DNA of 64,000 bases from an uncultured Gammaproteobacteria bacterium (GCA_964543535.1 CAZIYS010000001.1:195159-259158); one strand, 5' to 3'. Shown: positions 24,209-40,398, numbered from the stretch's first letter. A program made the numbers and translations. The notes: generated by a model from the letters alone, not told the origin.

Positions 24209-24790
24209 ATGGAAAAAATTATCTCTGTTGATTATTTTATTACTAACTTAATAAATAAATTTTTTCCTCATAATATTTTTTTCGATTATTTTTTCTCTTT
24301 TTTTTCCTTAAAAGGTAGCTCAATTTTAATCTGGTTGTTGGTGATTTTGTTGTCAGTGATTTTGGAAGAACGAAAAAATCCCGGTGTCAACAAAAAGGAC
24401 AAAAAGTTTATTATCTTGTTTTCTGTTTCTTTTTTACTGACTTTCCTTTTTAGTGACGTTGTTCTAAAAAATCTTTTTCATCGCCCCCGCCCACAATTAA
24501 TTTCTACAAATTTCAATTTATTTCAATTTATTTCTAACTCTTGCCCAACCGATCTCTCCTTCCCCTCCACTCATGCCGCCACCGCTTTCGCGGCAGCAAC
24601 AGTTTTGACTTTTTTTGACAAAAAACGCCGTTGGTTTTATTACACCGTCGCCGTTTTAATTTCCTTTTCAAGAATTTACCTTGGTTGTCATTATTTTTTG
24701 GATGTCATCGCCGGAGCAATAATCGGATATATCATCAGTCAACTACTTCTATTCGTCCACGATACATTCCCATCCCGCAGGAAAAGTTGA
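24209..24790 (+). CDS. PAP2-family phosphatase
   Basis: RPRP...PSTHAATAFAAA...SRIYLGCHYFLDV acid-phosphatase motifs. Confidence 0.75.
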   Translation: MEKIISVDYFITNLINKFFPHNIFFDYFFSFFSLKGSSILIWLLVILLSVILEERKNPGVNKKDKKFIILFSVSFLLTFLFSDVVLKNLFHRPRPQLISTNFNLFQFISNSCPTDLSFPSTHAATAFAAATVLTFFDKKRRWFYYTVAVLISFSRIYLGCHYFLDVIAGAIIGYIISQLLLFVHDTFPSRRKS

Positions 24791-26048
24791 TGAAACCGGA
24801 GTCTTTCGGAGTAAACTCAAAAATATTTTCGCCTTCGTTTAAAGCTTTTTGAATCCCAAGCGAAGGAACGACAAAATAACCCTGGCAGCCAAAGACATTT
24901 TTCCCGTCAACAATCCATTTAACAGGAATTCTCTTTTTAACAATAAAATAATTGGGAACATAACCGCCGCTAACCACTGCCATATTGATAATTTGCTTGC
25001 CGTTTTCTATCTTTACGTTTGAAGCAGTTCCCTTGTTAATTTGATTGAAACCTAAATTAATCCCATAAATGGAAAGAAAATTTGCCGTATAATATAAGCC
25101 TAAAATCAAAACTCCAACCGCCATCACTTTCATAAAGTATTGATAGATTGTACTTTTTAGCAAACCTCTCAAATTACCGATGAATAAAATGGCCGGCGCT
25201 GTCCCGAGGGCAAAAACCGCCATGGTTAAAGCGCTCTGCCAAGGAGATGCTAAACCCAAAGCATAGACTTGCGTCGCCTGGGTAAAGCCACAAGGAAGAA
25301 AGTATGTAATCAATCCTAACAAAAAAGCTGATTTATGGGGATCTTTAATTAAGCGATTCTCCAACTTTCTGAAAACATTGGAAGAAACACCATAAGGAAT
25401 AATGGCGGCAAAAGAAACAATCTTTAACATATCCAGACCCAGAAGAATCATAAATACGGCTGCTAATAAAGTTAAAACCGATCCGAATTTAAAGTTAATG
25501 ATAATGACGCTGCCGATTAAACCGGCGATGAATCCGAAAAATCCGTAGGAAATAATCCTTCCCGAACTAAAATAAATTGCCTGTTTTAAATTATTGGTTT
25601 TTCTGCCGATTGTTGATAAAAATAGCGCTCCTGAAGTTGCCATGCAGGTAGAGATAGACGCCACTAGACCTAAAAACAAAATGGTTAATAAATTCAAATT
25701 GCCGGTAATATTAATAGCCGGAATAATATTAATTTCTTTGGCAATTAAATAAATTAAGACTAAACCTGCCGTGATTAAAACCGCTTCAAAAATCTTTTTA
25801 CCCAAGGGTTCTTTGTCTTCAATATCATTGTGCCGTTCCGTTATCTCATAACCAAACGGTCGAATTTTTTTATTAATGATGTCTTGATCCAAATGACCGG
25901 TAAAATAAACTTCTGCCTCCTGTTTATTAAAATTAGACTTCACTTCAGTAACATTAGGTACTTCTTTAAATTTATCGGTAATTAAGATCTCGCAGGAAGG
26001 ACAGTGCATTCCTTTGATATGAATGGTTTTTTTACTTATTTTAGGCAT
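24735..26048 (-). CDS. fusion protein: HMA metal-binding domain, polytopic membrane domain, C-terminal cupredoxin-like domain
   Basis: N-terminal GMHCPSC, about 7 TM segments, and C-terminal FSCGMGMYRG resembling ORF 37279..37632. Confidence 0.7.
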   Translation of the reverse strand: MPKISKKTIHIKGMHCPSCEILITDKFKEVPNVTEVKSNFNKQEAEVYFTGHLDQDIINKKIRPFGYEITERHNDIEDKEPLGKKIFEAVLITAGLVLIYLIAKEINIIPAINITGNLNLLTILFLGLVASISTCMATSGALFLSTIGRKTNNLKQAIYFSSGRIISYGFFGFIAGLIGSVIIINFKFGSVLTLLAAVFMILLGLDMLKIVSFAAIIPYGVSSNVFRKLENRLIKDPHKSAFLLGLITYFLPCGFTQATQVYALGLASPWQSALTMAVFALGTAPAILFIGNLRGLLKSTIYQYFMKVMAVGVLILGLYYTANFLSIYGINLGFNQINKGTASNVKIENGKQIINMAVVSGGYVPNYFIVKKRIPVKWIVDGKNVFGCQGYFVVPSLGIQKALNEGENIFEFTPKDSGFINFSCGMGMYRGRIEVVD

Positions 26049-26107
26049 AAAGAAAATTAAACCATTTTAAAAAAGATTTTGCAAATGAAGATACTTTTTA
26101 TTGCCAA

Positions 26108-26284
26108 TCAACAATTTTTTCCATCTTTATAGCACTTCATGCATAATCTCTCATTGCTGCAACTATAATCAGGCAGTTGTTGAAAAAGTTTTTCTATAAT
26201 TACATTTTTAATATTATTACCAAAAAACAACATAATAAAAATAGCCAATAATAGTATTCCTCCAATAATTAATTTGATCTTCAT
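26108..26284 (-). CDS. 58-aa membrane-anchored Cys-rich peptide (not in the ORF track)
   Basis: My own translation: MKIKLIIGGILLLAIFIMLFF...YSCSNERLCMKCYKDGKNC. ATGA overlap with the stop of the CcdA gene. Confidence 0.4.
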   Translation of the reverse strand: MKIKLIIGGILLLAIFIMLFFGNNIKNVIIEKLFQQLPDYSCSNERLCMKCYKDGKNC

Positions 26285-26889
26285 ATGTATCCCTGTAAAG
26301 AGAAATAGATAAGATAGACTGCCGCTGCCAACATTAATACCCCGCCAATTCTTTGAACTAATGTCATATGTCTCATTAATTTAAATTGAAAAACTTTATC
26401 GGTTATGATTAAACCAAACACAAAAAACGGGGTAATAAAACCAATCCCGTAAAAAATAATCATAAAAATCCCGTTGACCAAACTTCTTTGAGCAATAATA
26501 AATGTCAAAAGTGAAGCCAGTTGCGGACCAATACAACCTAAAATAACTGCACCGTAAAGGAGTCCGTCAATAAAGGCATGTGAATGTTTGTTAGGCTCTT
26601 GTATGTGAGGTAGTTCTAATTTAATGGCGCCCAACATCCCCAATCCTGAAATTAAGGTAACAATACCGGCTATAAAATAAAGATAGCGATTAACAGAATT
26701 AGTAAAAACAATACCGGTCAGAGAAGCAACGATTCCTAAAGAAATAAAAACAAGAAGCATTCCAGAAAAAAAATAGATTACCCCAATCAATGATTTTTTT
26801 ATTTTACTGAGAATTACCGGCACCATGATAAAGGTACAGGGGCCAACGATTGAAAGAATACCTAAAATAAATGCATAGAGATAGTTCAT
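26281..26889 (-). CDS. ccdA: CcdA/DsbD-family thiol:disulfide transmembrane electron transporter
   Basis: Six TM segments with one Cys in each half (GPCTF and GCIGPQ). Confidence 0.7.
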   Translation of the reverse strand: MNYLYAFILGILSIVGPCTFIMVPVILSKIKKSLIGVIYFFSGMLLVFISLGIVASLTGIVFTNSVNRYLYFIAGIVTLISGLGMLGAIKLELPHIQEPNKHSHAFIDGLLYGAVILGCIGPQLASLLTFIIAQRSLVNGIFMIIFYGIGFITPFFVFGLIITDKVFQFKLMRHMTLVQRIGGVLMLAAAVYLIYFSLQGYI

Positions 26890-26919
26890 CTTTGTATTTT
26901 ATTGGAAATTAATTATTAT

Positions 26920-26948
26920 CCCTCGACTCGTTTTACTCGCTCGGGATG
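26920..26948. repeat. GC-rich palindromic element family C, intergenic copy
   Basis: ccctcgactcg-ttttac-tcgctcgggatg. Related inverted copy at 39036-39064. Confidence 0.75.
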
Positions 26949-26958
26949 AAGATTAGGT

Positions 26959-27561
26959 TTATTTAAATCTAATCTTCACTTTTTTCCCTTTAAGATTGTC
27001 TTCATTTGCAGGTTTAAGATCTTCGTTTTTAAGACAGTAACCGGTGACATCGCAAATTATTTTGGCCAAATTTTCCTTGGAGATATATCCATCAACCGTA
27101 TATTCTTTCGAGTCTTTTTTTGTAGAAAATACAAAACCAGGAGTAAGACTTAATTTATATTTTTGCATGATGTCATTACAACTTTCCCGGGTATATTTTT
27201 CCAGTTTGAAAGCCTGGCCCTCTTTTTGCAAAAGCTCGTCCAAATGCTGATCTTCCAATATGCACCAAAAACAGACCGGAGAGTAAAAATATTTTATCGT
27301 TAAGTCTGCGTCAGGATTTCCCGCTTGCTCATCCGGACATTTGGATTCAAGCTTAATTTTTTTCGTAAACTCAGGTTTTAACTGTTGCTTTTTTAATATT
27401 AATAATTGTTTTTGAGAAATAATTAATTTTTTTTTATTAAAATTTATTAAATTCCTTAAAGCAATATTGGCAAAAATAAACAAAAAAATAATTAGCAAAC
27501 CGATTACCAACAAAAAATATCGTTTTTCATCCTTTTCAATAACAATTTTAGGAAAACTCAT
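26959..27561 (-). CDS. membrane-anchored thioredoxin-like protein (CxxC)
   Basis: N-terminal TM helix. CFWC motif after a beta-strand-like YFYSPV. Confidence 0.55.
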   Translation of the reverse strand: MSFPKIVIEKDEKRYFLLVIGLLIIFLFIFANIALRNLINFNKKKLIISQKQLLILKKQQLKPEFTKKIKLESKCPDEQAGNPDADLTIKYFYSPVCFWCILEDQHLDELLQKEGQAFKLEKYTRESCNDIMQKYKLSLTPGFVFSTKKDSKEYTVDGYISKENLAKIICDVTGYCLKNEDLKPANEDNLKGKKVKIRFK

Positions 27562-27562
27562 A

Positions 27563-27790
27563 TTAACAACCTCCCACCTGTTGGGGAATATCTTTTAAAG
27601 CTGCCGGTAAATTTGATTTACCTACTGAAGTAGTAGTCCCATCCGCTTGTTTCTTACCAAGAAGGCTTGTTAATACCACTGTTTGGATTACGGAAATGAA
27701 GACTAAAATTGACAAAAGTCCTAAAACAAGCATGTTAATATTAAAGCGAAAAGTTATCTGTTTGTTTTGACGTTTTAATTCTTCTACCAT
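27563..27790 (-). CDS. 75-aa single-TM protein ending in QQVGGC
   Basis: Strong SD (aaggaggtg) 7 nt upstream. One TM helix. C-terminal Cys is the last residue. Confidence 0.5.
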   Translation of the reverse strand: MVEELKRQNKQITFRFNINMLVLGLLSILVFISVIQTVVLTSLLGKKQADGTTTSVGKSNLPAALKDIPQQVGGC

Positions 27791-27889
27791 TATTTCTCAC
27801 CTCCTTTAGAGATTGTTTGCGAACTTATAATAGTGAGCATTACAATCTCTTAAGTCCTTCCGTAGCTAATTGAGCGAAGGAGGACTCCA

Positions 27890-28510
27890 TCATTTTCCAT
27901 TTTCCAACTGTTGTAACATCGATTGCTCTATACTAACTATTGACAGCCGTTCGCTCATCCAGTCATTAACGGAAACTGATTTCGGATCAGTACCTTTCGA
28001 TTGTAAATACGTTGCCGCAATCGCATAGTGTTTTGGCCACCAGAAGCGGTACCATAAGAATAATTCTTCCTTAATTTTTTTGTCATCCCATCCTTGAGTA
28101 ATAAGATATTTTGCTAGTCCCATAGCCGCCTGGGCATGAAGACAGTCTTTAGTGTCAATGGGAGCATCGCAACAGGGGTGAGGCAATTTACCTAAACTTT
28201 CCAGTCTCTTTTTCTGATCGGCCGTTAAGCTGGAATCAGCAATTTCTTTTTCCATCTCAATCATTTGCTGACCGTTGGTCTCAACATATTTACTTAAAGT
28301 CACCGGTTCATCTTTCCATTTATATGGTCTGACTTCATCTTTATCAGTTGGGAGAATATCGGTTGATCCACTGTTAACGGATGCAGCTGATAAAGTAATT
28401 GCTCCGGAAGACAAAGCGTAGATTACCTGGGTCAAAAGAATTTGTTTAACGGCTGTTACCAAAATTGCAATAATTAAAAAACTTTTTATTAATTTTGACT
28501 TGAATATCAT
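27890..28510 (-). CDS. secreted Cys-rich protein, P-C-C-D...D-C-x-H family (paralog 1), unknown function
   Basis: Signal-anchor N-terminus. PHPCCDAPIDTKDCLHAQA aligns with RPCCDNSTAFPDCNHGMA of ORF 37634..38563. Confidence 0.6.
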   Translation of the reverse strand: MIFKSKLIKSFLIIAILVTAVKQILLTQVIYALSSGAITLSAASVNSGSTDILPTDKDEVRPYKWKDEPVTLSKYVETNGQQMIEMEKEIADSSLTADQKKRLESLGKLPHPCCDAPIDTKDCLHAQAAMGLAKYLITQGWDDKKIKEELFLWYRFWWPKHYAIAATYLQSKGTDPKSVSVNDWMSERLSIVSIEQSMLQQLENGK

Positions 28511-28532
28511 AAGAAGTAATTTTACTCAAATA

Positions 28533-28554
28533 TTTATGAAGATTTTATGAAGAG
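28533..28554 (-). promoter_or_regulatory. direct-repeat box (TCTTCAT-N4-TCTTCAT), candidate response-regulator site
   Basis: atgaaga at 28536 and 28547 (11-bp period), 11 nt upstream of a TAAAAT -10 for the gene starting at 28510. Confidence 0.5.
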
Positions 28555-28615
28555 AAAATATAAAAACGACCCACCTTTGAATGGTTATAATCATTTACCG
28601 TAACAAAATTGATAA

Positions 28616-28891
28616 TTACTTTTTTGCAAAATAATTATATAAATTGGCAAAAAGATAGCCGACTAACCAGGTGCCGATCGTTGACGTTGTTAGTCCCAGG
28701 ACGAATGAACCTAATGACAGATTTAATTCAGAAATTTGGGTTAATTGAATACCATGGAACCACGACTGGGCAATCGTCATTGCCAGATCTGGGAAAAGAG
28801 CAACTCCTACACGACAAACAATATAAACTATGGCGACGGTTACTGCCGCCGCATTGGCTGTGGCTTTTGGATCATGTTTCATATTTTTCAC
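28616..28891 (-). CDS. small membrane protein, unknown function
   Basis: 91 aa with two hydrophobic helices and an SD-like aaggaggtg upstream. The plus-strand ORF 28609..28911 is judged to be an antisense artefact. Confidence 0.5.
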   Translation of the reverse strand: MKNMKHDPKATANAAAVTVAIVYIVCRVGVALFPDLAMTIAQSWFHGIQLTQISELNLSLGSFVLGLTTSTIGTWLVGYLFANLYNYFAKK

Positions 28892-28911
28892 CTCCTTTCA
28901 TATATTTATAA

Positions 28912-29391
28912 TTATAACTCCCATTTCAACTTCCTCTGCGAAACACCGCCAACATCTTTGATGATTAACTCAACGAACTTTGTTTCTGATAAGACTGTAT
29001 TAAAAGTCAAGGTTCCCTCTCGATGATGGCCGCCTGGAACAGTGCCTTTCCAATTCGAATTAGAGTAGATATTGCTTTTGTCATCAACAAATGAACTTAT
29101 CTGAGCTACATCAAATGCTAAATCCACCGAGTGAGTCTCAAATACAATGTTAAAACTTGGTTTTTCCCCGATTTTCAAAACTTTTGGCTTAACTTTTACT
29201 GTAACATTGCCGCCTTCATTTTCCTGAGAATTTAGATTTTCTTCCTGCTTACTAACACTGCTAACAGCTTTAATCCCGGCAGATTTTTTATCGGTTTTTT
29301 TGACGGCATTAATTCCCAAAAATAAAACTACGAAGACTAAAATTATTAGTAAAAAATTATTGATTTTTGACATGGGTTTTGATCTTAGCAA
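28912..29391 (-). CDS. membrane-anchored secreted protein with GGHH motif, unknown function
   Basis: N-terminal TM helix, beta-rich ectodomain, GTVPGGHHREG. Confidence 0.5.
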   Translation of the reverse strand: MLRSKPMSKINNFLLIILVFVVLFLGINAVKKTDKKSAGIKAVSSVSKQEENLNSQENEGGNVTVKVKPKVLKIGEKPSFNIVFETHSVDLAFDVAQISSFVDDKSNIYSNSNWKGTVPGGHHREGTLTFNTVLSETKFVELIIKDVGGVSQRKLKWEL

Positions 29392-29806
29392 TTGTTTTTA
29401 ACATATATAAAATCCCCAATAAGTTCATCGATATTCCGAAAATGATGATGGGAATTTGATATCTCGTCAGAAATATGGCAAAGCCTGATAGACCGATTAT
29501 GGGCAGAACTTCGCTTAGGTGATGTGCACAGCAGGCAATCATTGAGGCAGATGAAGTACCTGTAGAAGCGGCCGTGACGGCTCCGGCTTGATTTGTGACT
29601 GGCGAATGACTGATTAGCCTCTTCAACCGTGTAAATAAACCAATCTGAACTCCAAATCCTAAGGACAAAGTTATCATCCAATACCAGAGTTCTTTAAATT
29701 GGAAAATGGTGGCTGACCAACTTCTTGAAGCAAATGTCATCACTAAAAAATAAAAAAACAGCAGTCCGAAAAACCCGGCTAACCCGCTTAAAATTTCTTT
29801 TTTCAT
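29357..29806 (-). CDS. 4-TM membrane protein with intramembrane C-C-A-H-H motif
   Basis: SASMIACCAHHLSEVLP lies within a hydrophobic segment. Confidence 0.55.
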   Translation of the reverse strand: MKKEILSGLAGFFGLLFFYFLVMTFASRSWSATIFQFKELWYWMITLSLGFGVQIGLFTRLKRLISHSPVTNQAGAVTAASTGTSSASMIACCAHHLSEVLPIIGLSGFAIFLTRYQIPIIIFGISMNLLGILYMLKTIAKIKTHVKNQ

Positions 29807-29818
29807 AATCTTAATTAT

Positions 29819-29847
29819 ATGAAGACATTATTAAGAATTTATGAAGA
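29819..29847 (-). promoter_or_regulatory. triple direct-repeat box, candidate response-regulator site
   Basis: atgaaga (29819), attaaga (29830), atgaaga (29841): exact 11-bp period. The box abuts a TATAAT that lies 7 nt before the ATG at 29806. Confidence 0.55.
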
Positions 29848-29855
29848 ATGGAAGA

Positions 29856-30455
29856 TTAGAAAGTTCTTTTTTTATAGTCTAAGTAAGTCTTGCTAAATTT
29901 ATCTTCCATCTCCTTCTCTTCTTGTTTGGCCAAAATAAAATAACGGATAATCAAGATCGGCGCCATAAGAAGAGTAATTAAGGTTGGCCATTGGAGAAGA
30001 AAACCAATAATAATCAGAATAAAACCAATGTATTGAGGGTGGCGGACATATTTATAGACACCGGTTGTTGCCAAAATATTTTCTTTTTGCGCTTTGTATA
30101 AGACTTCCCAGGCAGTGGCAATGAGAACTAAACCGCCAATAATTAAGCCATTACTAATTAGATGAAGATAGTTAAAATGCGGATCTCCGGAAATATTCAG
30201 AAGTTTATTCAATACGTGGCCTGAATCGTGAGAAAAATCAATATTAAAAAATTTGTTACCAAACCACGAAGTTAACAGATAAATAGTTAAGGGAAATCCA
30301 TACATCTCGGCAAAAAGAGCGACTATAAATGCGGAAAACGTCTGATAAGTCCGCCAATCGGTTTTACTGCGGGGCTTAAAAGCCGATTTTAGAAACACTA
30401 AAAAAATGACTATGCTAATTATGACAAGAAACCAGTTTCCATACTCGTATTTCAT
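29856..30455 (-). CDS. isoprenylcysteine carboxyl methyltransferase (ICMT/PEMT) family membrane methyltransferase
   Basis: VYKYVRHPQYIGFILIIIGFLL motif. Confidence 0.75.
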   Translation of the reverse strand: MKYEYGNWFLVIISIVIFLVFLKSAFKPRSKTDWRTYQTFSAFIVALFAEMYGFPLTIYLLTSWFGNKFFNIDFSHDSGHVLNKLLNISGDPHFNYLHLISNGLIIGGLVLIATAWEVLYKAQKENILATTGVYKYVRHPQYIGFILIIIGFLLQWPTLITLLMAPILIIRYFILAKQEEKEMEDKFSKTYLDYKKRTF

Positions 30456-30496
30456 AGTTCGATAAACTCACTATAACCCTGAGCAAAGTCGAAGGG

Positions 30497-30763
30497 TCAT
30501 AATGACAAAATCTTGCTGATGAACTTCTTTTTATCCAGAGTACCGCTAGAAAAAAGTTTTCCGTTGATGATAATTCCCGGGTTGGATAAAACCGAATGTT
30601 CAACGGCCAGATCTAAACCCTTTGCAGTGATGATATTAATTTTTTCAATATGTAGTTTAAGATAAGAAAATTCTTTTTTGACTTCCTGGAATATGATTTT
30701 AGCCCGCTCACATTCCGTACACCCGGGAGCAGTCAAAAACTGGACTTGAATTACCGGTTTCAT
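30497..30763 (-). CDS. small thioredoxin-fold protein (glutaredoxin-like, CxxC)
   Basis: 88 aa with TAPGCTECE motif. Confidence 0.7.
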   Translation of the reverse strand: MKPVIQVQFLTAPGCTECERAKIIFQEVKKEFSYLKLHIEKINIITAKGLDLAVEHSVLSNPGIIINGKLFSSGTLDKKKFISKILSL

Positions 30764-31458: not shown

Positions 31459-31482
31459 ATCTCTATTTATATACTTTTAATA

Positions 31483-31500
31483 ATTAAGATTTTATTAAGG
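31483..31500 (-). promoter_or_regulatory. direct-repeat box, candidate response-regulator site
   Basis: attaaga (31483) and attaagg (31494), 11-bp period, upstream of a TATA-rich -10 and the ATG at 31458. Confidence 0.45.
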
Positions 31501-31508
31501 GCTCGTTC

Positions 31509-31579
31509 GTCCCGCTTAGCGGGACGATTACGGCCCTTTATGCCGCATCCTTAAAGATCGTATTATTAGCGGATGCGGC
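31509..31579 (-). terminator. two GC-rich hairpins directly after the CcdA-like gene stop
   Basis: gccgcatcc...ggatgcggc (9-bp stem) abuts the stop codon. It is followed by gtcccgc-tta-gcgggac. Confidence 0.5.
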
Positions 31580-33600: not shown

Positions 33601-33602
33601 CT

Positions 33603-34274
33603 TTATTTTTTGCCAATTTTATAACCGACCCCGTGGACGGTCTGGATTAATTTATTTTTAAATCCGGAGTCGACTTTCTTCCTTAAAGTAGCCACAAAAA
33701 CGTCAACCACATTAGACAGTGCATCGAAGTTATAGTCCCAGACATGTTCGGTAATCTGGGTTCGGGTGACTACTTCACCCTGATGTCTTAGTAAAAATTC
33801 AAGAATAGAAAATTCCTTGGGAGTTAAAAAAATTATTTTATTGCCTCTTTTAGCAGTATGCTTAACCGGATCAACTTCCAAATCCTCAACCTGAAGAGTG
33901 GTTTGCGTTTGATTATGACTGCGGCGAAGAAGAGCTTGAAGGCGGGCTTTCAGTTCGGTAAAAGCAAATGGTTTGGTGAGATAGTCATCAGCACCAACAT
34001 TTAAGCCTTCGACTTTATCTTCAACCGTGGTTTTGGCGGTTAACATAAGAATGGGTGTAGTAATTTTTTTATTTCTCAAGCTCCGGCAAACATCCAGTCC
34101 GTTAATTTTAGGCAGCATGACATCAAGAATGATTAGGTCATAACTTTCTGATTCAGCTAAATACTGTCCTTCTTCTCCGTCAAATGCCTGGTCGACGGCA
34201 AATCCTTCCTCAATCAATCCTTTTCTGACAATATTAGAAAGTTTTCGCTCGTCCTCAATAATTAAGATTCTCAT
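33603..34274 (-). CDS. OmpR/PhoB-family response regulator
   Basis: Receiver domain DLIILDVMLP...LTAK and a winged-helix C-terminus. ATG at 34274 is preferred over the track's TTG at 34280. Confidence 0.9.
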   Translation of the reverse strand: MRILIIEDERKLSNIVRKGLIEEGFAVDQAFDGEEGQYLAESESYDLIILDVMLPKINGLDVCRSLRNKKITTPILMLTAKTTVEDKVEGLNVGADDYLTKPFAFTELKARLQALLRRSHNQTQTTLQVEDLEVDPVKHTAKRGNKIIFLTPKEFSILEFLLRHQGEVVTRTQITEHVWDYNFDALSNVVDVFVATLRKKVDSGFKNKLIQTVHGVGYKIGKK

Positions 34275-34285
34275 AGGCAAATGAT

Positions 34286-34315
34286 ATTATAGCTAATATG
34301 AAGATATCATTAAGT
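34286..34315 (-). promoter_or_regulatory. autoregulatory promoter: direct-repeat box plus TATAAT
   Basis: atgaaga (34298) and attaagt (34309), 11-bp period, 6 nt upstream of TATAAT (34286-34291). Confidence 0.5.
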
Positions 34316-34370
34316 TTTAAAGTTATATCTTAATTAAACCTTCACAAACTGATTGCTATTATTTTTACAT

Positions 34371-34532
34371 ATGGAGGATAAATTTTCAAAGTTTTCATTA
34401 TATGTTTTTATTACTGGAGTCATTATTGCTTTGTATGTTTTAATTAACTCTCTTCTTCATACCTCAATTGGCTCAAAGATTGTCAATCCACCGCCTGCCT
34501 CACAATTTATGGGACCAAATGCCAAAGAATAA
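34371..34532 (+). CDS. possible 53-aa single-TM protein on the opposite strand (not in the ORF track)
   Basis: MEDKFSKFSLYVFITGVIIALYVLINSLL... fills an otherwise unexplained 254-bp gap. TTAAAC-17-TATTAT lies 8 nt upstream. No SD. Confidence 0.3.
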   Translation: MEDKFSKFSLYVFITGVIIALYVLINSLLHTSIGSKIVNPPPASQFMGPNAKE

Positions 34533-34534
34533 AT

Positions 34535-34882
34535 TTAGGGAAGAAGAAATCCTCCTTTATAACCGGGAATCCACCAGGGAATAAAGACGTAGATCATAAA
34601 AGCAATACGAAAGATAATAGAAAATACTACGTAAAAAATAATTAAAAGCAAGTGGTCTCTTATGTTCTTATGTCCCTTTTTCTCACAACATCTTCCGTAA
34701 TATTGATACAAAAAAAAGAAAAGCCCTCCCACAAGAAGAAGCGGGAGAAGAAAAATTTTCTTATCCCCCTCTTGACGAACCAACAAAAGATAACCGGAAG
34801 CGGCAAGAAAAATAATCAGGCCGCCACAACAAACAAGATGGAACAAAAAAAACGGCACCACTGACCCAATAAACTTTTTCAT
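34535..34882 (-). CDS. MerF/MerT-like small membrane protein with two vicinal Cys-Cys pairs
   Basis: HLVCCGG lies in TM1 and GRCCEKKGH in a loop. The layout resembles mercury/metal uptake proteins. Confidence 0.5.
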   Translation of the reverse strand: MKKFIGSVVPFFLFHLVCCGGLIIFLAASGYLLLVRQEGDKKIFLLPLLLVGGLFFFLYQYYGRCCEKKGHKNIRDHLLLIIFYVVFSIIFRIAFMIYVFIPWWIPGYKGGFLLP

Positions 34883-34924
34883 TTTTTCTTTCCGCCACCG
34901 TGACAGCCTTCGTGTTTCATAGGT

Positions 34925-37165
34925 TTATATTTTTGCTTTTTTTAGAAAAAGCGAATTTGTAACTACTGAAATGCTAGAAATTGCCATTGCTCCTGAGGCT
35001 AAAATCGGACTAATCCACCCCATCATGGCCACCGGTATCAAAACTACATTATACGCGAAAGCCCAAAATAAATTAAGCTTAATTGTTTTCATTGTTTGTT
35101 TGGATAATTTAATCGCCGAAACCACTGACATTAAATTTTTATTAACTAAGGTAATCCCGGCCGCTTCAATCGCAACGTCGGTGCCGCTTCCCATAGCAAT
35201 CCCGATGTCAGCGGAGGCAAGCGCCGGCGCATCATTAATTCCGTCTCCGATCATAGCAACTATTTTTCCTTGTAATTGAATCTTTTTTACTTCTTTTTCT
35301 TTGTCCTGTGGCAAAACTTCGGCTAAAACGTTTTCTTTTTTAATCCCAACTTGATTAGCAATTGCTATTGCTGTTTGATTGTTGTCTCCGGTAATCATAA
35401 ATATCTCAATCTCTAAATCTCTCAATCTCTGAATTGCTTCTTTAGCCGTTTCTTTAATCGTATCGGCAATGGCAATTGCGCCTACTAATTTTTCATCTAT
35501 ATAAACATAAACTACGGTTTTGCCTTGATTTTTTAGTTTTTGAGCCTGGTCACCCTTAGGGTGTTCAGCCACGAGTTTACCTACATAAATCTTTTTTCCG
35601 TTGATCATCCCTTCAACACTTTGACCGGTAATTGATTTAAACTTAGAGACTTTAATTAATTGAAGTTTTTCTTCTTGCGCTTTATTAACAATTGCTTCGC
35701 CCAAAGGATGCTCGGAATTTTTTTCGACAGATGCGGATAGAGTTAAAAGCGAAGATATTAAATTTTTTGCGGTTTGTGGTTTTCCGTCAAAAAATTTCGA
35801 TATCGAGCTTTTATTTATCACAATAATGTCTGTCACTTCTGGTTTGCCTTTCGTCAATGTCCCTGTCTTGTCAAAAATTATTGCTTTGATTTTATGGGCA
35901 GTTTCCAAGCTCTCAGCATCTTTAATTAATATTCCATGTTGAGCCCCGATTCCTGTTCCAACCATAATCGCAGTCGGGGTTGCCAGTCCCATTGCGCAAG
36001 GACAGGCAATAATTAAAACGGCAATCGAGTTAAGCATTGCCAAAATGAATCCGCCGGCTGACGGCCCAAAAACATACCAACCAACAAATGTTGAGATAGC
36101 CAACATTATCACAATAGGAACAAAATAAGAAGAAATAATATCGGCCAATCTTTGAATTGGGGCTTTGCTTCCCTGTGCTTCTTCAACCATTTTAATAATT
36201 TGGGAAAGCATGGTATCTTTACCGACTTTAGTGGCTTTATAAACAAAACTTCCCGATTTGTTCATCGTCGCTCCAATTACCATATCTCCTTTATATTTTG
36301 AAGCGGGCATGCTTTCACCAGTCACCATCGACTCATCAATTGCTGATTCTCCTTCAATAATGACTCCGTCAACAGGAATTTTTTCTCCCGGTCGAACCCT
36401 GATTAAATCACCAGCAACAACCGCATCAATTGAAATATCGATTTCTTTTTTATTTCGAATTACTCGAGCAGTTTTTGCCTGAAGGCCGATTAATTTTTTA
36501 ATCGCTTCTCCTGTCCCGGCTTTAGCTTGAGCTTCCAAGAACCGGCCCAACAAAATCAAACCAATAATAACTGTTGAGACGTCAAAATACGGTTCGGTTT
36601 TTAAATTTAGTCTTTCAAAAAAACCAGGAAAAAATACTACTGCGGCAGAATAAAGATAAGCTACCGTTGTTCCAATCACTACCAAAGTATCCATGTTGGC
36701 AAGGCGGTGTTTTAAAGAAGAAATCGCCGCTTTGTAAAAATCATAAGCTCCCCAAAACTGGACAATTGACGCCAGGAAAAAATGATAGAACATGTTTTTT
36801 AAGATATTTGGAGCCGTATTCAAAAGCCCTGGAAAACTCCCCCAAACGACTAAGCCAGCTAAAATTAGGCTGACAGTAGTTTTAATCTGGAGGTCTTTCA
36901 ATTCTTTTTCCTTTTCTTCTTTGATCTTCTCATCCAATGAATCTTCCTCGTGGGTTTCATCTAACATCGCTTCGTAACCAACACTTTCTACTGCACTTTT
37001 TATAGCATCATTTCCAATTGGCATAGCCGCAGTTATAGTGGCTTTGCCAGTATTCAAATTAACAACCGCTTCAGTAACTCCGGGAATTGCTTTTAATGCT
37101 TTCTCATTGGAATAAACGCACGAAGCACAGTGCATGCCTTTAATGGCAAAAGTTTGTTTATTCAT
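34925..37165 (-). CDS. copA: copper-translocating P1B-type ATPase
   Basis: N-terminal [37 protein letters not shown]. Confidence 0.95.
35745..35812. repeat. AT-rich hairpin element family E, in-frame copy inside copA
   Basis: Differs by only a few bases from 37175-37240. Translated as [23 protein letters not shown] between DKTGT and SEHPL. Confidence 0.85.
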
Positions 37166-37174
37166 ATGTTTTTC

Positions 37175-37240
37175 AAAGCGAAGATATCAAATTTTTTGCG
37201 GTTTTTTGTTTTCCGTCAAAAAATTTCGATATCGAGCTTT
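37175..37240. repeat. AT-rich hairpin element family E, copy in the copA upstream region
   Basis: aaagcgaagatatcaaattttttgcgg...ccgtcaaaaaatttcgatatcgagcttt. The arms are self-complementary. Confidence 0.85.
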
Positions 37241-37278
37241 AAATAACCCGTTAACATGTTAACTCGTTAACCAAATAA

Positions 37279-37632
37279 CTATTTAATAATTAGTTTGCCG
37301 TGGAACATACCCATGGCACAGGAAAAATCAAACTCCCCTTTTTTATCGGGGGTGATTTCAACAGTTACTTTCTCATTCAGAGGTAATGATTTTTTAATTT
37401 TAAAGTCGGCAAAAATCACTTCTTCCAAACAACTATTACTGTCTTTTCTTTGAAAAACTAGTTTTGTTGTTTTCCCATATGGAATTGCAATCCTTTCCGG
37501 TTTATAACCACCATCAACTAAGATATCAATTCTTCCTTCTGCTTGAATTGTATTAACTTTTTTCATAAAAAAGAACCAATAAGTAAATATTATGCCTAAG
37601 ATGCCAGAAACAGCAACAATTATTTTATCCAT
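37279..37632 (-). CDS. membrane-anchored cupredoxin-like domain protein
   Basis: TM anchor and FSCAMGMFHGKLIIK C-terminus. Same motif as the C-terminus of ORF 24735..26048. Confidence 0.65.
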   Translation of the reverse strand: MDKIIVAVSGILGIIFTYWFFFMKKVNTIQAEGRIDILVDGGYKPERIAIPYGKTTKLVFQRKDSNSCLEEVIFADFKIKKSLPLNEKVTVEITPDKKGEFDFSCAMGMFHGKLIIK

Positions 37633-37633
37633 A

Positions 37634-38563
37634 TTAAACCCCGCATCCTCCTCCGGTTTTTGGCGGCTGTTCGACTATTCCTTTATTAATTAACCACTGT
37701 TTAGCCGCTTGCCAACCTGAGGAAGAAGAAAATTCTTTACCTAATATTATCTGGGCTGGAACCTGGCTAAATTTTTTCCCTTCCTTATTTTTAAAGTATA
37801 ACGCCAAATCATAGTAATTACTTGGGAACCAAAATGCATTAAAGTATTTGGCCGCTTCAAACATCTGATTTTCCGTGGCATTATTTCCTGCCATCAACTG
37901 TAACACTGCCAGTAACGCCATTCCGTGGTTGCAGTCCGGAAAAGCAGTCGAATTATCACAACAAGGACGATAGATATTGCCAGCTACTTTTGCCACTAAC
38001 GCCTGTTGTTGATCGTTTAATGAAATCAGGCTTTCTTTTGAAAAATAATTCATTGGGTCACCGGCCGCCAAGCTCCAGCCACCGGTTGAGGCAAAATTAC
38101 CAACCTTGCCTTCACCGTACTTAACAATATCGCCTTCATCTAAAACCTTTGATTTATTGTTTAAACCAACGGCCCAGAAAAAGTTGAGCAAAAAATAAGA
38201 ATTGTCACGATCTATCTTGATTTTTTTATCTGATCCTTTAGTCAAAATTTCCAGCTGCTCTTTAGTTAACGGCTGAGCGCTCTTTTCATATGTCTGTTTA
38301 AACTTTTCCAGATCAATCACTCCGGAAGCAACCATTTTAGGCCCTAAATCGTCATATTTCGCATTAATCTCAAAGCCTTTTTCCGGATTAATTTCATCAA
38401 ATAAATTTGCCGTTTCTTTTTTCGCGGCAGTTTCTTTGCTTTTTGAGATTAACTTATTAACCTGCGGCTTTAACACATAGGCTAAAGCTAAAATATTTAA
38501 CCCCAAACTCAATCCCAAAACAATAAGCCAAAGATTTTTGGCTGGTTTTTTTGTTCTTTTCAT
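37634..38563 (-). CDS. secreted Cys-rich protein, P-C-C-D...D-C-x-H family (paralog 2), ends in GGGCGV
   Basis: Signal anchor. YRPCCDNSTAFPDCNHG. ATGA overlap with the upstream CcdA-like gene. Confidence 0.6.
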   Translation of the reverse strand: MKRTKKPAKNLWLIVLGLSLGLNILALAYVLKPQVNKLISKSKETAAKKETANLFDEINPEKGFEINAKYDDLGPKMVASGVIDLEKFKQTYEKSAQPLTKEQLEILTKGSDKKIKIDRDNSYFLLNFFWAVGLNNKSKVLDEGDIVKYGEGKVGNFASTGGWSLAAGDPMNYFSKESLISLNDQQQALVAKVAGNIYRPCCDNSTAFPDCNHGMALLAVLQLMAGNNATENQMFEAAKYFNAFWFPSNYYDLALYFKNKEGKKFSQVPAQIILGKEFSSSSGWQAAKQWLINKGIVEQPPKTGGGCGV

Positions 38564-39393
38564 TTTTTTTTAATTAATTTATAAAAAATAAAAATAATAA
38601 AACTGAAAATTAATAAATCGATGATCGGATTTTGAAAATATTTGGAGATATTAAAAACCATCAGCCGTAAAGGTTTAGTATAAACTTCCATCTGATACAT
38701 CTGGATCTTATTGTAATAATTAAAAATAATAATCAAAACTCCGGAGATGATAAAAATTCCTGCTCCTAAAGCCTGAAAGATTTTGTAGATTTTTTCCCGA
38801 TTAGAACCGGAAATTTTATTGGTTAGTTTATTGTAGAAAAGAGACAGAATAAAAAGCGGGAAAACTATCCCCAATACATAAGCTAAAGAGACAATTAAGG
38901 CCTGAAATAAAGTCGGTGATAAACTGGTCAGAGTGACGGCCGCAAACAAAACCGGCGCGCAACAGGAAGAAGAAAGCCCTGACATTACCCCTAAACTAAA
39001 CACCGAAAATATATTTATTTTTTCTCCCCCCTTGTCATCCCGAGCGAGCGGAGCGAGTCGAGGGAGCTTAAAAAGTTGGGGGAAATGAAAGATTGGTTTA
39101 ATCGTCATAAATCCCATAAAAATCAAAAACAATCCTCCAAAATAATAAATTTGCTTATGCCAACTGTCAAAAAAGAAGATAAAAAATCTAAATCCCAAAG
39201 CGACCGGAATTAAGATTATCGATAAACCCAGTGCAAATACCAAGGTATAAAACATTACTTTTGTTCCGCTTTTGAAAACCGTTCCCAGATAAGAAGGAAA
39301 TAAAAATGTGATACAGCATGGGGCAAACAAAGCCAAGACTCCGGCCAAAAACGAAGCGGTCAAGGAAATGCCGAAGAAAAAGTTGCTATTCAT
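38560..39393 (-). CDS. CcdA-like membrane protein with vicinal Cys-Cys in both halves (copy 2)
   Basis: LFAPCCITFLFPSY and SSCCAPVLFA. Carries the family C repeat in a loop. Confidence 0.7.
   Translation of the reverse strand: MNSNFFFGISLTASFLAGVLALFAPCCITFLFPSYLGTVFKSGTKVMFYTLVFALGLSIILIPVALGFRFFIFFFDSWHKQIYYFGGLFLIFMGFMTIKPIFHFPQLFKLPRLAPLARDDKGGEKINIFSVFSLGVMSGLSSSCCAPVLFAAVTLTSLSPTLFQALIVSLAYVLGIVFPLFILSLFYNKLTNKISGSNREKIYKIFQALGAGIFIISGVLIIIFNYYNKIQMYQMEVYTKPLRLMVFNISKYFQNPIIDLLIFSFIIFIFYKLIKKK
39036..39064. repeat. GC-rich palindromic element family C, in-frame copy inside a CDS
   Basis: catcccgagcgag-cggag-cgagtcgaggg, translated as part of PRLAPLARDD. The paralog at 31580..32428 lacks these residues. 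Confidence 0.75.
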
Positions 39394-39401
39394 AAATTTT
39401 T

Positions 39402-39505
39402 ATTGATATTTTCGCTTTTAGCAGACGAGGTAAGCGTAATTTTTTCACCTTTTGAGTGATAAAATTACCTTACCGAGTCCAATAAACACGGTGTCAAGCT
39501 TTTAT
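39402..39505. repeat. hairpin element related to module X/E termini
   Basis: Reverse complement starts aaagcttgacaccgt and ends aaaagcgaaaatatcaa, as at 17463-17624. Internal stem ggtaagcgtaatttt/aaaattaccttacc. Confidence 0.5.
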
Positions 39506-39999
39506 TTGACAGTCGCTTTAACCTTAAATATTAATTTTTGATTGTCCGGATCATTGGTTGTCACATAAACTTCCCTCTCTACCACTCCATAAACCGGCAT
39601 TATGGAAGGTCTGTAAGTTACTTTAATGATCGCTTCTTTCCCCGGCAGTACTTCTCCGGCAAAATCTGAAATATTATGCATCCCAAAAAGCTCAGACTCT
39701 TTACCGTTTATTACGATCTGACCAAAAGCGCAGTTACAACTTGAAGAAACGTTGCTCAACTGCAAAGGTTTTTGACCGATATTTTTTATCTTAAAGTTGG
39801 CTGATTTATCGTCGGAAACCTTCATCTTCCCCAAATCAGCAAAAGTCGTTTTAGCTTCCACCCTTGGCTTTTCTTTATTTGTAGTTGAATAAGACGCGAT
39901 TTGCGGTTGCGGCTTTTGTCCACCCACTAACATAAAATACGAACCGCCAATAACAACGATTGAAAAAATAATTATCCCGATGATTAAAATTTTTGACAT
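39502..39999 (-). CDS. DUF1573-domain protein (membrane-anchored)
   Basis: FKIKNIGQKPLQLSNVSSSCNCAFG matches the DUF1573 hallmark. Confidence 0.7.
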   Translation of the reverse strand: MSKILIIGIIIFSIVVIGGSYFMLVGGQKPQPQIASYSTTNKEKPRVEAKTTFADLGKMKVSDDKSANFKIKNIGQKPLQLSNVSSSCNCAFGQIVINGKESELFGMHNISDFAGEVLPGKEAIIKVTYRPSIMPVYGVVEREVYVTTNDPDNQKLIFKVKATVK

Positions 40000-40046
40000 A
40001 TGCTATATTTCGTACGGAACAAAAATTTTTGTTCCCTACAATTTAA

Positions 40047-40310
40047 TTATTTTCGTTTAAACACCTCAATCACCTCGGCCACTTTTTCGTCAATCCCCTT
40101 TCCACTAACAATAGACTCTCTAACACAGGTTTTTAAGTGGTTTTCCAAAATCAATTCCGCGACTTTTTCCAATGAACTTTCTACTGCCTGAGTCTGTTGA
40201 ATCACATCCAAACAGTACTGGTCCTTTTCCACCATCTCAATCACCTTCTCTAAATGCCCATGGGCAATTTTTAATCGATGAAGCAGATTCTTTTTATGCT
40301 GATTGTTCAT
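40047..40310 (-). CDS. csoR: CsoR/RcnR-family metal-sensing repressor
   Basis: 87 aa. RLKIAHGHLEKV...QYCLDV...HLKTC gives a C-H-C ligand pattern. Confidence 0.85.
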   Translation of the reverse strand: MNNQHKKNLLHRLKIAHGHLEKVIEMVEKDQYCLDVIQQTQAVESSLEKVAELILENHLKTCVRESIVSGKGIDEKVAEVIEVFKRK

Positions 40311-40348
40311 ATTTTTGATATTTGATATTTAATTTTTAATATTTCTTC

Positions 40349-40398
40349 TATCCTCCCCTCCACCATAGGATTGTAAAGTAAAAAAATATTTTTGTCAA
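40349..40398 (-). promoter_or_regulatory. csoR promoter (TTGACA-17-TACAAT) with candidate CsoR operator
   Basis: -35 at 40393-40398 and -10 at 40370-40375. An inverted repeat atcct-N12-aggat around a C-tract (40349-40369) lies just downstream. Confidence 0.5.

Follow-up and report, generated by a model that had tools for sequence, protein, structure and literature searches.

The window analysed here, a 64,000-nucleotide (nt) stretch of DNA deposited as an uncultured Gammaproteobacteria bacterium (GCA_964543535.1 CAZIYS010000001.1:195159-259158), carries a copper and thiol-redox gene island. Its host is a groundwater Candidate Phyla Radiation (CPR) bacterium of the Microgenomates (Patescibacteria). 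Based on a listing of open reading frames (ORFs) from 22 to 43 kb, the island forms a 15.6-kb block of 23 consecutive minus-strand ORFs (24735-40310), where the initial annotation of this DNA had counted about 24 genes in one co-directional block. Intergenic gaps within the block range from -35 to 254 nt, four gene pairs overlap by 4-35 nt, and plus-strand ORFs lie on either side: a PAP2 gene (24209-24790) and an ORF of 174 amino acids (aa) without assignment (40460-40984). All features below are on the minus strand unless stated otherwise.

The initial annotation had treated the block as one 'supercluster'. We find instead a short conserved core (csoR ... copA and a gene fusion with HMA, DsbD_2 and CupA-like domains) together with approximately 8.8 kb of separately recurring cassettes, and the block is organized as a mosaic of these independently recurring cassettes rather than as one unit. 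Five cassettes can be distinguished: DUF1573, a tetra-Cys CcdA and an unclassified protein that we call PCCD; DUF2933, a second tetra-Cys CcdA, a TlpA-like CxxC protein, a small thioredoxin and an ICMT-family methyltransferase; a CCAHH membrane protein and a His3 beta-sandwich; a PCCD paralogue, a GGC-tailed peptide, a thioredoxin-like protein, a canonical CcdA and a Cys-rich peptide; and the HMA-DsbD_2-CupA-like fusion. We consider it fairly probable (roughly 60%) that the whole represents a CsoR-controlled copper-stress island, in which a conserved efflux core has accreted cassettes that service the outer face of the membrane. Pfam and NCBIfam searches recovered every family named in the initial annotation (csoR, copA, the HMA-membrane-cupredoxin fusion, a cupredoxin, a two-component pair, CcdA, three thioredoxin-fold proteins, DUF1573, DUF2933 and ICMT) and added DUF5676.

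The copper efflux core and its regulators

The first gene of the block, csoR (40047-40310), encodes an 87-aa Cu(I)-sensing repressor that has both the CsoR fold (PF02583, E 7.7e-25; 87.5 bits against a cut-off of 22.8) and the C-H-C ligand fingerprint. Its putative Cu(I) ligands, read from the sequence, are C33, H58 and C62, and their spacing (C-x24-H-x3-C) is the same as that of C36, H61 and C65, the ligands in Mycobacterium tuberculosis CsoR. Directly upstream lies a promoter-like TTGACA-17-TACAAT site (40398-40370), which matches the consensus at 11/12 positions, is the strongest sigma-70-like site of the region and starts exactly at 40398, the upper boundary assigned to the block in the initial annotation. 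Within the same segment (40349-40398), a G-rich pseudo-palindrome at 40349-40370, CCTATGGTGGAGGGGAGGATAG, follows immediately past the -10 box and is a candidate CsoR operator.

Two further genes complete the efflux route. The product of 37279-37632 is a membrane-anchored cupredoxin-fold protein (Pfam Cupredoxin_1) that aligns with the CupA structures PDB 4F2E/2MRY (E 1.1e-22 over 82 aa) and with CopA's metal-binding domain, PDB 4F2F (E 4e-9). The C...CxMxM binuclear Cu(I) site (C68 and C105-x-M107-x-M109) is 100% conserved in 17 orthologues, and at the level of sequence the protein is clearly a CupA homologue, not a generic blue-copper protein. With one Lys or Arg before its TM (transmembrane) helix (residues 4-22) and three after it, the soluble domain probably faces the cytoplasm. 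The chaperone CupA is tethered to the membrane and supplies CopA on the cytoplasmic side (PMC5646241; PMC7558416), and its cysteines are oxidized during Cu(II) reduction, so that resetting needs a reductant not yet identified (PMC5646241). Because CupA is a cytoplasmic chaperone for CopA, the stand-alone cupredoxin is probably not an extracytoplasmic part.

The copA gene itself (34925-37165) encodes a Cu(I)-exporting P1B-1 ATPase (TIGR01511, 599.8 bits against a cut-off of 397, together with Pfam domain matches), with an N-terminal HMA domain, a CPC motif read from the sequence, and 'AYN' and 'MAISS' in the last TM helices. The CsoR ligands (C33/H58/C62), the CPC motif of CopA and the CupA homologue together identify the metal as copper. 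Here the CupA-type chaperone goes with a CopA that has a ferredoxin-like HMA as its N-terminal domain; according to a 2020 review, CupA is confined to a few streptococci, always as cupredoxin paired with cupredoxin (PMC7558416).

The initial annotation had noted a CusS/CusR-like pair, whose genes lie downstream of copA. The best matches are indeed to these families, although both fall below the profile cut-offs and the kinase has no sensor domain. The OmpR-type response regulator (33603-34280) is nearest to the heavy-metal CusR/CopR family and scores marginally below the cut-off of TIGR01387 (272.9 versus 279.2 bits). The 335-aa histidine kinase (32593-33600) is of CusS lineage and matches TIGR01386 at profile positions 168-457 only, the transmitter half (223.4 versus 292.55 bits); its two TM helices are joined by a loop of approximately 5 aa, which leaves no extracytoplasmic sensor domain. 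The same short kinase form occurs at loci L004, L009, L020 and L031.

Small sequence elements surround copA. One of them, a palindrome of 69 nt, occurs twice, with 94% identity between the copies: copy 1 (37172-37240) lies directly upstream of the copA start codon, and copy 2 (35743-35811) lies in frame inside the gene, where it encodes 23 residues in a loop of the CopA N-domain. The CopA orthologues of L001, L002 and L006 lack these residues (approximately 17), and those of L004 and L005 have them; the element looks like a small repeat inserted into coding sequence. Between cupA and copy 1, three GTTAAC hexamers form a direct repeat (gttaacgagttaacatgttaac, 37245-37275, minus strand), possibly a response-regulator site or another operator.

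Tetra-Cys CcdA proteins, the PCCD family and their partners

Vicinal Cys-Cys dipeptides occur nine times in the 4,530 aa of the island, where 0.55 would be expected at the island's own Cys frequency, and twice in the remainder of the window (13,947 aa). Across orthologues, these CC residues show 91-100% conservation. The density to which the initial annotation had drawn attention is above chance.

Two of the proteins concerned are CcdA-like, with vicinal cysteines in both halves, as first described. ccCcdA_A (38560-39393) is a CcdA-type protein with 6(+1) TM helices that carries APC26C27, SSC144C145AP and H79, and ccCcdA_B (31580-32428) carries C24C25, H77 and C132C133; the two share 41% identity (E 4e-53). 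Measured against the DsbD_TM gathering score of 27.1 bits, ccCcdA_A fails by itself (22.9 bits) and ccCcdA_B passes (30.1 bits). However, a tetra-Cys CcdA profile built from 26 sequences aligns with Thermus CcdA (PDB 5VKV) across the whole 6-TM core (E 2.7e-16), and judged by this alignment both tetra-Cys proteins are true CcdA homologues. The canonical redox cysteines of TM1 and TM4 align with C26 and C144, while the additional C27 and C145 replace Val or Ile and are not a feature of the CcdA/DsbD family; C26, C27, H79, C144 and C145 are invariant in the 26 sequences. The ccCcdA_A family has 1,707 homologues, publicly labelled 'cytochrome c biogenesis protein CcdA' or hypothetical, a label that sits on copper-island genes in organisms and replicons without a cytochrome maturation context. 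A third, canonical CcdA (26281-26889; DsbD_TM, 44.3 bits) has one cysteine per half (C18 and C119). All island conduits are of CcdA size (202-282 aa), without extra domains.

The island has a thiol-redox layer, judging from the CcdA homology of both tetra-Cys proteins and from the CxxC or CxC partner encoded beside each. Beside ccCcdA_A, an immunoglobulin (Ig)-like DUF1573 protein with an N-terminal TM anchor (39502-39999; PF07610, PF22544) has C88-x-C90, M107/H108 and M134 invariant in 40 orthologues. It gives a weak NCBIfam match to the OS_HP2 selenoprotein family and, because Sec-containing DUF1573 homologues carry UGC at the CxC motif (PMC9312934), this site is likely to be redox-active. 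Beside ccCcdA_B, a membrane-anchored AhpC/TSA-fold protein with a His/Gly-rich linker (30760-31458; PF00578, 87.4 bits against a cut-off of 26) has ResA as its best NCBIfam match (E 4e-18). Its CxxC is 100% conserved within the motif EGVMC115APC118W, which has no Thr before the first Cys, and we predict a TlpA/ResA-like reductase. The adjacent small thioredoxin, Trx3 (30497-30763; Pfam Thioredoxin_3, TIGR00411, TIGR00412), has a CTEC motif and no signal sequence and is the candidate cytoplasmic electron donor. Next to the canonical CcdA, TrxL200 (26959-27561) is an anchored thioredoxin-like protein with weak Pfam matches to Thioredoxin_2 and Thioredoxin and with a CxxC (C97-F-W-C100) that is invariant in orthologues. 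With Trx3, the TlpA-like protein, TrxL200 and DUF1573 as neighbouring partners, gene context argues for thioredoxin-dependent electron transfer by the tetra-Cys CcdAs.

The last gene of the block (24735-26048) encodes a 437-aa fusion in which HMA, a first helix (TM0), a 6-TM DsbD_2 domain and a CupA-like domain follow one another (Pfam HMA, DsbD_2, Cupredoxin_1). Its membrane residues C135 and C253 are invariant. The CupA-like domain carries C388 and C424-x-M-x-M, aligns with CupA (PDB 4F2E, E 9.3e-13) and is 30% identical to the cupredoxin domain of the stand-alone protein (E 5e-10). Seven TM helices would place HMA inside and the CupA-like domain outside the cell, a topology derived from hydropathy, the positive-inside rule and CcdA topology. 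The hydropathy-based predictor was too noisy for polytopic and several single-pass proteins, so sidedness throughout is estimated in this way.

Among the unclassified genes are those of the PCCD family. PCCD309 (37634-38563), a membrane-anchored extracytoplasmic protein with an ectodomain of approximately residues 60-309, has an invariant R199-P-C201-C202, D210-C211-N-H213 and NFASTGGW loop, and a flexible C-terminal tail ending in GGGC307GV, whose family-conserved form is G-G-x-C-G. A 90% clustered database holds 5,027 homologues, all unnamed, in 618 clusters at 50% identity. Neither Pfam nor NCBIfam contains a match, and the PDB holds none detectable by sequence or profile. An AlphaFold2 (AF2) model with a predicted local distance difference test score (pLDDT) of 82.4 consists of one TM/stalk helix, one domain of mixed alpha/beta structure, a helical domain starting from the DCNH motif and a disordered tail, and Foldseek returned no usable match for it in the PDB (best E 5.5). 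The shorter paralogue PCCD206 (27890-28510) retains the PCC...DCxH core (H111, C113C114, C123, H125) and, as the initial annotation had recognized, is related to PCCD309, with 26% identity over a 66-aa core (E 4e-9). About a quarter of the close PCCD homologues (P0048, P0090 and 25 other matches) are approximately 466 aa long and carry an additional N-terminal 4-TM domain of no known family, with the conserved sequence SvGCAVCgG...LLPl.GiAASLTAFPFQGLEIK. This domain does not replace ccCcdA_A, because the two co-occur.

Several smaller proteins share the Cys, His and Met motifs. CC115 (34535-34882) is an unclassified 3-TM protein with H15 and C18C19 in TM1 and C65C66 in the following loop; H15, C18C19 and C66 are invariant in 11 orthologues. 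CCAHH149 (29357-29806), an unclassified 4-TM protein with invariant M89, C92C93 and H95, is always paired with the gene for sec159 (28912-29391), whose ORF overlaps it by 35 nt. The 159-aa sec159 has 258 homologues and invariant H87 and H122H123 and is modelled as an anchored Ig-like beta-sandwich (AF2, pLDDT 85). We considered it as a CopC-, PCuAC- or YcnI-like copper protein and rejected this, as Foldseek gave generic Ig-like sandwiches; Helicobacter pylori CrdA among the matches (E 2e-3, TM-score 0.42-0.57) is suggestive at most. A relationship of CCAHH149 to the 'GCAVCGG' domain of the PCCD fusions was likewise unsupported (BLASTP E 0.04, nothing by hmmsearch, 6.7% probability by hhalign), and comparisons of CC115 with CCAHH149 and with that domain were negative.

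The remaining members are a DUF5676 2-TM protein (28616-28891; PF18926; C26, H46), the single-TM peptides GGC75 (27563-27790; 75 aa, invariant ...QQVGGC end) and mini58 (26108-26284; 58 aa, Cys-rich tail with C42, C48 and M49 invariant), a DUF2933 mini-protein (32429-32560; PF11666; C16, H20, M23M24, H30 and a C-terminal C-H) and an ICMT-family membrane methyltransferase (29856-30455; PF04140, 38.6 bits against 24). DUF2933 is recurrent in copper islands (PMC8478169), and we also found it in those of Burkholderia plasmids. For PCCD309, PCCD206, CC115, CCAHH149, sec159, GGC75 and mini58, Pfam returned only noise at E <= 10 and NCBIfam nothing, so the earlier statement that several CC proteins fall outside characterized families stands. 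The proposal that a module of CcdA-like protein, PCCD and cupredoxin occurs twice is only loosely true: the first copy comprises ccCcdA_A, PCCD309 and the CupA-like protein, and the second comprises PCCD206, GGC75, TrxL200, the canonical CcdA, mini58 and the HMA-DsbD_2-Cup fusion.

Doubled cysteines within a membrane could also suggest metal transport. The tetra-Cys CcdAs, the DsbD_2 fusion, CC115 and CCAHH149 might translocate Cu(I)/Ag(I) instead of conducting electrons, their in-membrane Cys pairs passing the metal to or from PCCD, the CupA-like domain and sec159 in the manner of MerT or MerF. The four cysteines and invariant His (H79 or H77) in the ccCcdA membrane core fit this idea, as do the metal-binding domains on both sides of DsbD_2 in the fusion (HMA inside, CupA-like outside) and the superfamily of the DsbD fold, some of whose members transport metal ions; LysE (PF01810) is the match obtained for some ccCcdA homologues. 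In addition, Mer transporters have as their Hg(II)-binding signature a CC motif that is embedded in a TM helix and followed by Pro. However, the canonical CcdA redox Cys positions are kept, and each ccCcdA is consistently flanked by thioredoxin-fold CxxC proteins, in several phyla also by a small cytoplasmic thioredoxin or glutaredoxin, which is the layout of an electron pathway. Mer transporter profiles gave no NCBIfam match at E <= 0.1 and no Pfam match beyond noise at E <= 10 among the unassigned island proteins, including CC115, and the 'MerF-like' protein of the initial annotation has no profile support. We regard translocation as unlikely, and treat the CcdA-type proteins as electron conduits in what follows.

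Recurrence of the cassettes in other genomes

Scanning one genome per species, we found a PCCD gene in at least 590 genomes, which belong to Microgenomates lineages, Portnoy- and Dojkabacteria, and Anaerolineae of the Chloroflexota. For gene neighbourhoods, the ORFs of 82 loci were searched with the 25 proteins of the window, and the 38 that had 6 kb or more of sequence to either side formed a well-flanked subset. In this subset copA lies within approximately 10 kb of PCCD at 31/38 loci, and DUF1573 and ccCcdA_A are present at 25/38, always adjacent in the order DUF1573, ccCcdA, PCCD; a response regulator was found at 21 loci, the HMA-DsbD_2-Cup fusion at 15 and DUF5676 at 15. Across the full sample, DUF5676 accompanies PCCD at 20/82 loci. 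The CCAHH149-sec159 pair recurs at 11-12 loci and ccCcdA_B with the TlpA-like protein at several. PCCD206, GGC75, TrxL200, CcdA and mini58 keep a fixed order at all 17 loci with PCCD206 (17/17), as far as the contigs reach. In the Chloroflexota, PCCD adjoins csoR, copA or cupA.

A relative with 65% identity has a short version at the same chromosomal site, running dnaB ... csoR, DUF1573, ccCcdA, PCCD, DUF5676, cupA, copA, HMA-DsbD_2-Cup ... PAP2, purB, purA, which indicates that 26108-34882 of the window, a stretch of 15 genes, has accreted within the conserved core. This cassette set of approximately 8.8 kb, between copA and the fusion gene, is missing from the syntenic site in L001, L005 and L006, and the long version is common to the closer relatives L004, L087 and L090. 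Horizontal acquisition on compositional grounds was considered and rejected, as the GC content of the island (0.32-0.38) is not distinct from that of its flanks and the core is syntenic with relatives. Several 'binchicken' metagenome-assembled genome (MAG) contigs (L003, L008, L015, L021 and others) are titled 'uncultured Gammaproteobacteria/Pseudomonadales' and hold loci 60-90% identical to the Microgenomates operon with the same synteny; these labels look like placeholders or mis-assignments.

The neighbourhoods bear on one further role for PCCD, that of a co-sensor or accessory of the adjacent CusRS-type system, reporting extracytoplasmic Cu(I) or thiol oxidation to a sensor-less kinase. 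PCCD is followed immediately by the regulator and kinase genes at approximately 17/82 loci, and the kinase of the window has no extracytoplasmic domain. Most kinases adjoining PCCD in related loci are nevertheless 445-472 aa long with the sensor domain kept, which weakens the case for an obligatory co-sensor; there are also PCCD loci that have no two-component system, such as those under CueR on Burkholderia plasmids, and in the window PCCD is separated from the pair by cupA, copA and CC115. We find this role very improbable.

On plasmids, tblastn detected PCCD homologues in Burkholderia thailandensis, B. contaminans and Paraburkholderia fungorum (31-33% identity, E 2e-31); B. contaminans plasmid NZ_CP090638.1 and B. 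thailandensis p1 (NZ_CP068711.1) are among the carriers, and WP_027810704.1 and WP_202821866.1 among the homologues. These keep RPCCDNST..DCNHG, the FASTGGW loop and the C-terminal Cys and sit in heavy-metal islands. On Burkholderia plasmids their neighbour is a P-type ATPase, the regulators are CueR or of MerR type, and DUF2933, CcdA, TlpA, SCO and DUF411 are present as well. Proteobacterial PCCDs (L100 8866-9819 and L101 8857-9774) start with twin-arginine motifs (RRRFLGVLAA and TRRDFIFAL), in place of the N-terminal TM anchor of the Patescibacteria, which suggests twin-arginine translocation (Tat) of a folded, possibly metallated PCCD. A class I S-adenosylmethionine (SAM)-dependent methyltransferase adjoins PCCD in three Burkholderia/Paraburkholderia plasmid lineages (L100 9928-10494, L101 8075-8692 and L103 10871-11485); the window instead has its ICMT-family methyltransferase elsewhere in the island.

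A close parallel is an island on a conjugative plasmid of B. contaminans (NZ_CP090638.1), with the order cueR ... DUF2933, CcdA, a peroxiredoxin-family protein (CQPC), thioredoxin, ICMT, peroxiredoxin, P-type ATPase, PCCD and SAM methyltransferase. Its succession of DUF2933, ccCcdA, TlpA-like protein, thioredoxin and ICMT is exactly that of the window from 32560 to 29856, and the proteins match those of the window with E 1.7e-42 (ccCcdA), 5.4e-42 (ICMT) and 3e-43 (PCCD, with RPCCDNST..DCNHG kept). Unlike the window, the plasmid island has a CueR regulator, a Tat-type signal on PCCD rather than a TM anchor and the adjacent SAM methyltransferase, and it has no CupA and no DUF1573. It is annotated only as hypothetical or CcdA, and no study of it was found in the literature searched. 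The RefSeq start of the B. contaminans tetra-Cys CcdA (WP_232352888.1, at L103 3753) drops the first TM helix with FAPCC; the longer ORF (L103 3663-4610; approximately 131062-132009 of NZ_CP090638.1) restores it, and the full protein has both FAPCC and SSCCAP.

As many as 46 plasmids carry homologues of ccCcdA, the majority of them plasmids of Rhodococcus, Streptomyces, Burkholderia and Mycobacterium. Streptomyces and Rhodococcus have the order CopY-M56, ccCcdA, a peroxiredoxin-family protein, glutaredoxin and CopC(D), and the arrangement of ccCcdA_B, a TlpA-like CxxC protein and a small thioredoxin or glutaredoxin recurs in the copper islands of B. contaminans, Streptomyces and Rhodococcus. 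No match to CCAHH149 was found on plasmids by tblastn. Overall, the neighbourhood comparison proposed in the initial annotation bears out its expectation: the genes co-occur outside this genome, in Patescibacteria, Chloroflexota and plasmids of Burkholderia, Streptomyces and Rhodococcus, and they are not all members of well-characterized families in a commonly annotated operon.

The plasmid setting lends some weight to a role in copper acquisition or cuproprotein maturation of the TlpA-Sco-PCuAC kind, in which PCCD would insert or chaperone copper outside the cytoplasm while CcdA and TlpA keep it reduced: on Burkholderia plasmids PCCD lies near SCO, TlpA, CcdA and c-type cytochromes, and its twin-arginine N-terminus there would suit a protein exported folded and possibly metallated. 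Yet the window and most Patescibacteria loci place the genes between csoR and cupA-copA, in an efflux operon derepressed by excess copper; no cuproenzyme gene was seen in the island; and the plasmid islands are themselves under CueR/MerR-type resistance regulators, with efflux ATPases. Acquisition strikes us as decidedly improbable, and the gene order favours a response to copper stress.

A model for copper and thiol handling and its known counterparts

In the copper-stress reading, homology shows the efflux route: a rise in cytosolic Cu(I) leads CsoR to derepress the operon, and the membrane-tethered CupA-type chaperone passes Cu(I) to the P1B-1 ATPase CopA for export. The three CcdA-type conduits would carry reducing equivalents across the membrane from cytoplasmic thioredoxin, for which Trx3 is the candidate donor, to anchored extracytoplasmic CxC/CxxC proteins (DUF1573, the TlpA-like protein and TrxL200), giving one plausible acceptor per conduit. 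These reductants may in turn keep the thiols of the PCCD pair, the GGC- and Cys-tailed peptides, DUF2933, DUF5676 and the CCAHH/His3 pair reduced and metal-competent. Reduced extracytoplasmic proteins rich in Cys, His and Met would then bind the Cu(I) expelled by CopA, and copper-catalysed disulfides would be reversed, in a logic like that of Scs. The fusion, whose Cys-lined DsbD-fold domain has copper-binding domains at both membrane faces, one at each, could act as a trans-membrane relay for Cu(I) or electrons, and the CusRS-lineage pair would provide a second regulatory input. In support, every accessory protein has invariant Cys/His/Met motifs.

Several points weigh against this reading. 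It is only from conserved ligand-type residues and gene context that PCCD, CC115, CCAHH149, sec159 and the peptides are proposed to bind copper; we know of no precedent in studied CcdA/DsbD proteins for the additional vicinal cysteines in both ccCcdA halves, which could signify metal rather than electron transport; the sidedness of TrxL200, the TlpA-like protein, sec159 and mini58 is ambiguous by the positive-inside rule; and, since many of the loci compared are closely related to one another, shared descent accounts for part of the co-occurrence. The extracytoplasmic Cu(I) handling and thiol repair suggested in the initial annotation holds for the metal and for the presence of a thiol-redox layer, while its stand-alone cupredoxin turns out to be a CupA homologue that probably faces the cytoplasm, and copper binding and thiol repair by the novel proteins are what we infer.

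A bolder version, which we offer only tentatively, is that PCCD and the tetra-Cys CcdA constitute a previously unrecognized extracytoplasmic copper-thiolate machine common to Patescibacteria, Chloroflexota, Actinobacteria and Burkholderia plasmids. Here a DsbD-fold protein whose doubled cysteines carry Cu(I) or two electron pairs would charge PCCD, which would sequester, redox-convert or hand off the Cu(I) expelled by CopA. PCCD would bring to this a fold that seems to be new, together with an invariant Cys3-His core and, at its C-terminus, a mobile GGGC arm. Such a machine would have escaped notice behind the annotations 'hypothetical' and 'cytochrome c biogenesis CcdA'.

For the core, the nearest known counterpart is the copper-derepressed cop operon of Streptococcus pneumoniae (copY-cupA-copA), to which we liken the operon of the window and in which a membrane-tethered cupredoxin-fold C...CxMxM chaperone is likewise encoded immediately upstream of copA. 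In contrast to S. pneumoniae, the regulator in the window is CsoR rather than CopY, CopA has a ferredoxin-like HMA rather than a cupredoxin metal-binding domain, DUF1573, ccCcdA and PCCD are added between regulator and cupA, and a second CupA-like domain, fused to HMA-DsbD_2, is predicted to lie outside the cell.

For the electron pathway, precedent comes from ScsB-TlpA-PprX, in which a DsbD-type conduit works with thioredoxin-fold proteins in copper tolerance (PMC3322552). Like the Scs systems of Salmonella and Caulobacter, the island combines DsbD-superfamily electron transporters with extracytoplasmic thioredoxin-fold or AhpC/TSA-fold proteins and is linked to copper. It differs in that its conduits are CcdA-size without alpha or gamma domains, two of them have vicinal Cys pairs, the partners DUF1573, PCCD and TrxL200 belong to other families, and the host lineage is Patescibacteria. 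The island contains no ScsB-type alpha/gamma domains and no ScsC or DsbG-like protein, which places it outside ScsABCD, and its relation to Scs is best described as functional analogy only. With the CcdA-ResA/StoA systems of Bacillus and Thermus CcdA (5VKV) it shares the 6-TM inverted repeat, redox cysteines in TM1 and TM4 and an anchored thioredoxin-like acceptor alongside; unlike these it has no cytochrome c maturation context, and two of its three paralogues add a Cys beside each redox Cys and a conserved His.

Part of the accessory set has also been documented. Clusters of MerR, copper P-type ATPase, cupredoxin, DUF2933 and ICMT occur on genomic islands and plasmids of marine Gammaproteobacteria, where the functions of DUF2933 and ICMT are unknown too (PMC8478169). 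In these, four accessory families adjoin the copper ATPase as in the window, but tetra-Cys CcdA, PCCD, DUF1573 and CCAHH families are not reported (PMC8478169). Vicinal cysteines bind soft metals in other resistance systems, including CopG (DUF411), whose CxCC motif binds a Cu4 cluster (PMC7558416), and MerT/MerF; for the island proteins this can serve as an analogy only, as neither sequence nor profile similarity was found. Literature searches on DUF1573 and copper, on CPR copper handling with CopA/CsoR and on CcdA in copper resistance with TlpA found no description of this system.

Accordingly, the suggestion that the island goes beyond the textbook parts list holds for the unclassified CC families and less so for the rest, since CopA with cupredoxin, DUF2933 and ICMT (PMC8478169) and the Scs concept (PMC3322552) were already known. 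Copper efflux joined to an Scs-like layer that reduces envelope thiols is an established kind of system, and part of the gene set is documented; what is new is the PCCD family, the CcdA variant of tetra-Cys type, the pairing of CCAHH with the His3 sandwich, the architecture HMA-DsbD_2-CupA and the cassette structure across four phyla. CsoR-CupA-CopA efflux and DsbD-fed envelope reduction are familiar individually, whereas the fate of Cu(I) after export from a monoderm-like cell, and the protection of exposed thiols, are poorly understood. PCCD and the doubled-Cys CcdA are tightly wired into copper operons of at least four phyla, and the host devotes approximately 1.5% of its genome to the island, assuming the ~1-Mb genome size of its relatives. 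Because cultivable Burkholderia, Streptomyces and Rhodococcus plasmids carry the same cassettes, the proposed roles are directly testable.

Two minor features concern the block and its border. A GC-rich 31-nt element (TCATCCCGAGCGAG..GAGCGAGTCGAGGGA) occurs in two copies, against 0 expected by chance: one at 39035-39065 (plus strand), within the ccCcdA_A ORF in a lineage-specific loop insertion 'LAPLARDDKGG', and one at 26919-26949 (minus strand), in the intergenic region between TrxL200 and CcdA. The plus-strand 174-aa ORF at 40460-40984, between csoR and dnaB, has a signal-like N-terminus, a Pro-rich tail and no Pfam match; at the syntenic position, L001 and L002 carry an unassigned 767-aa gene.

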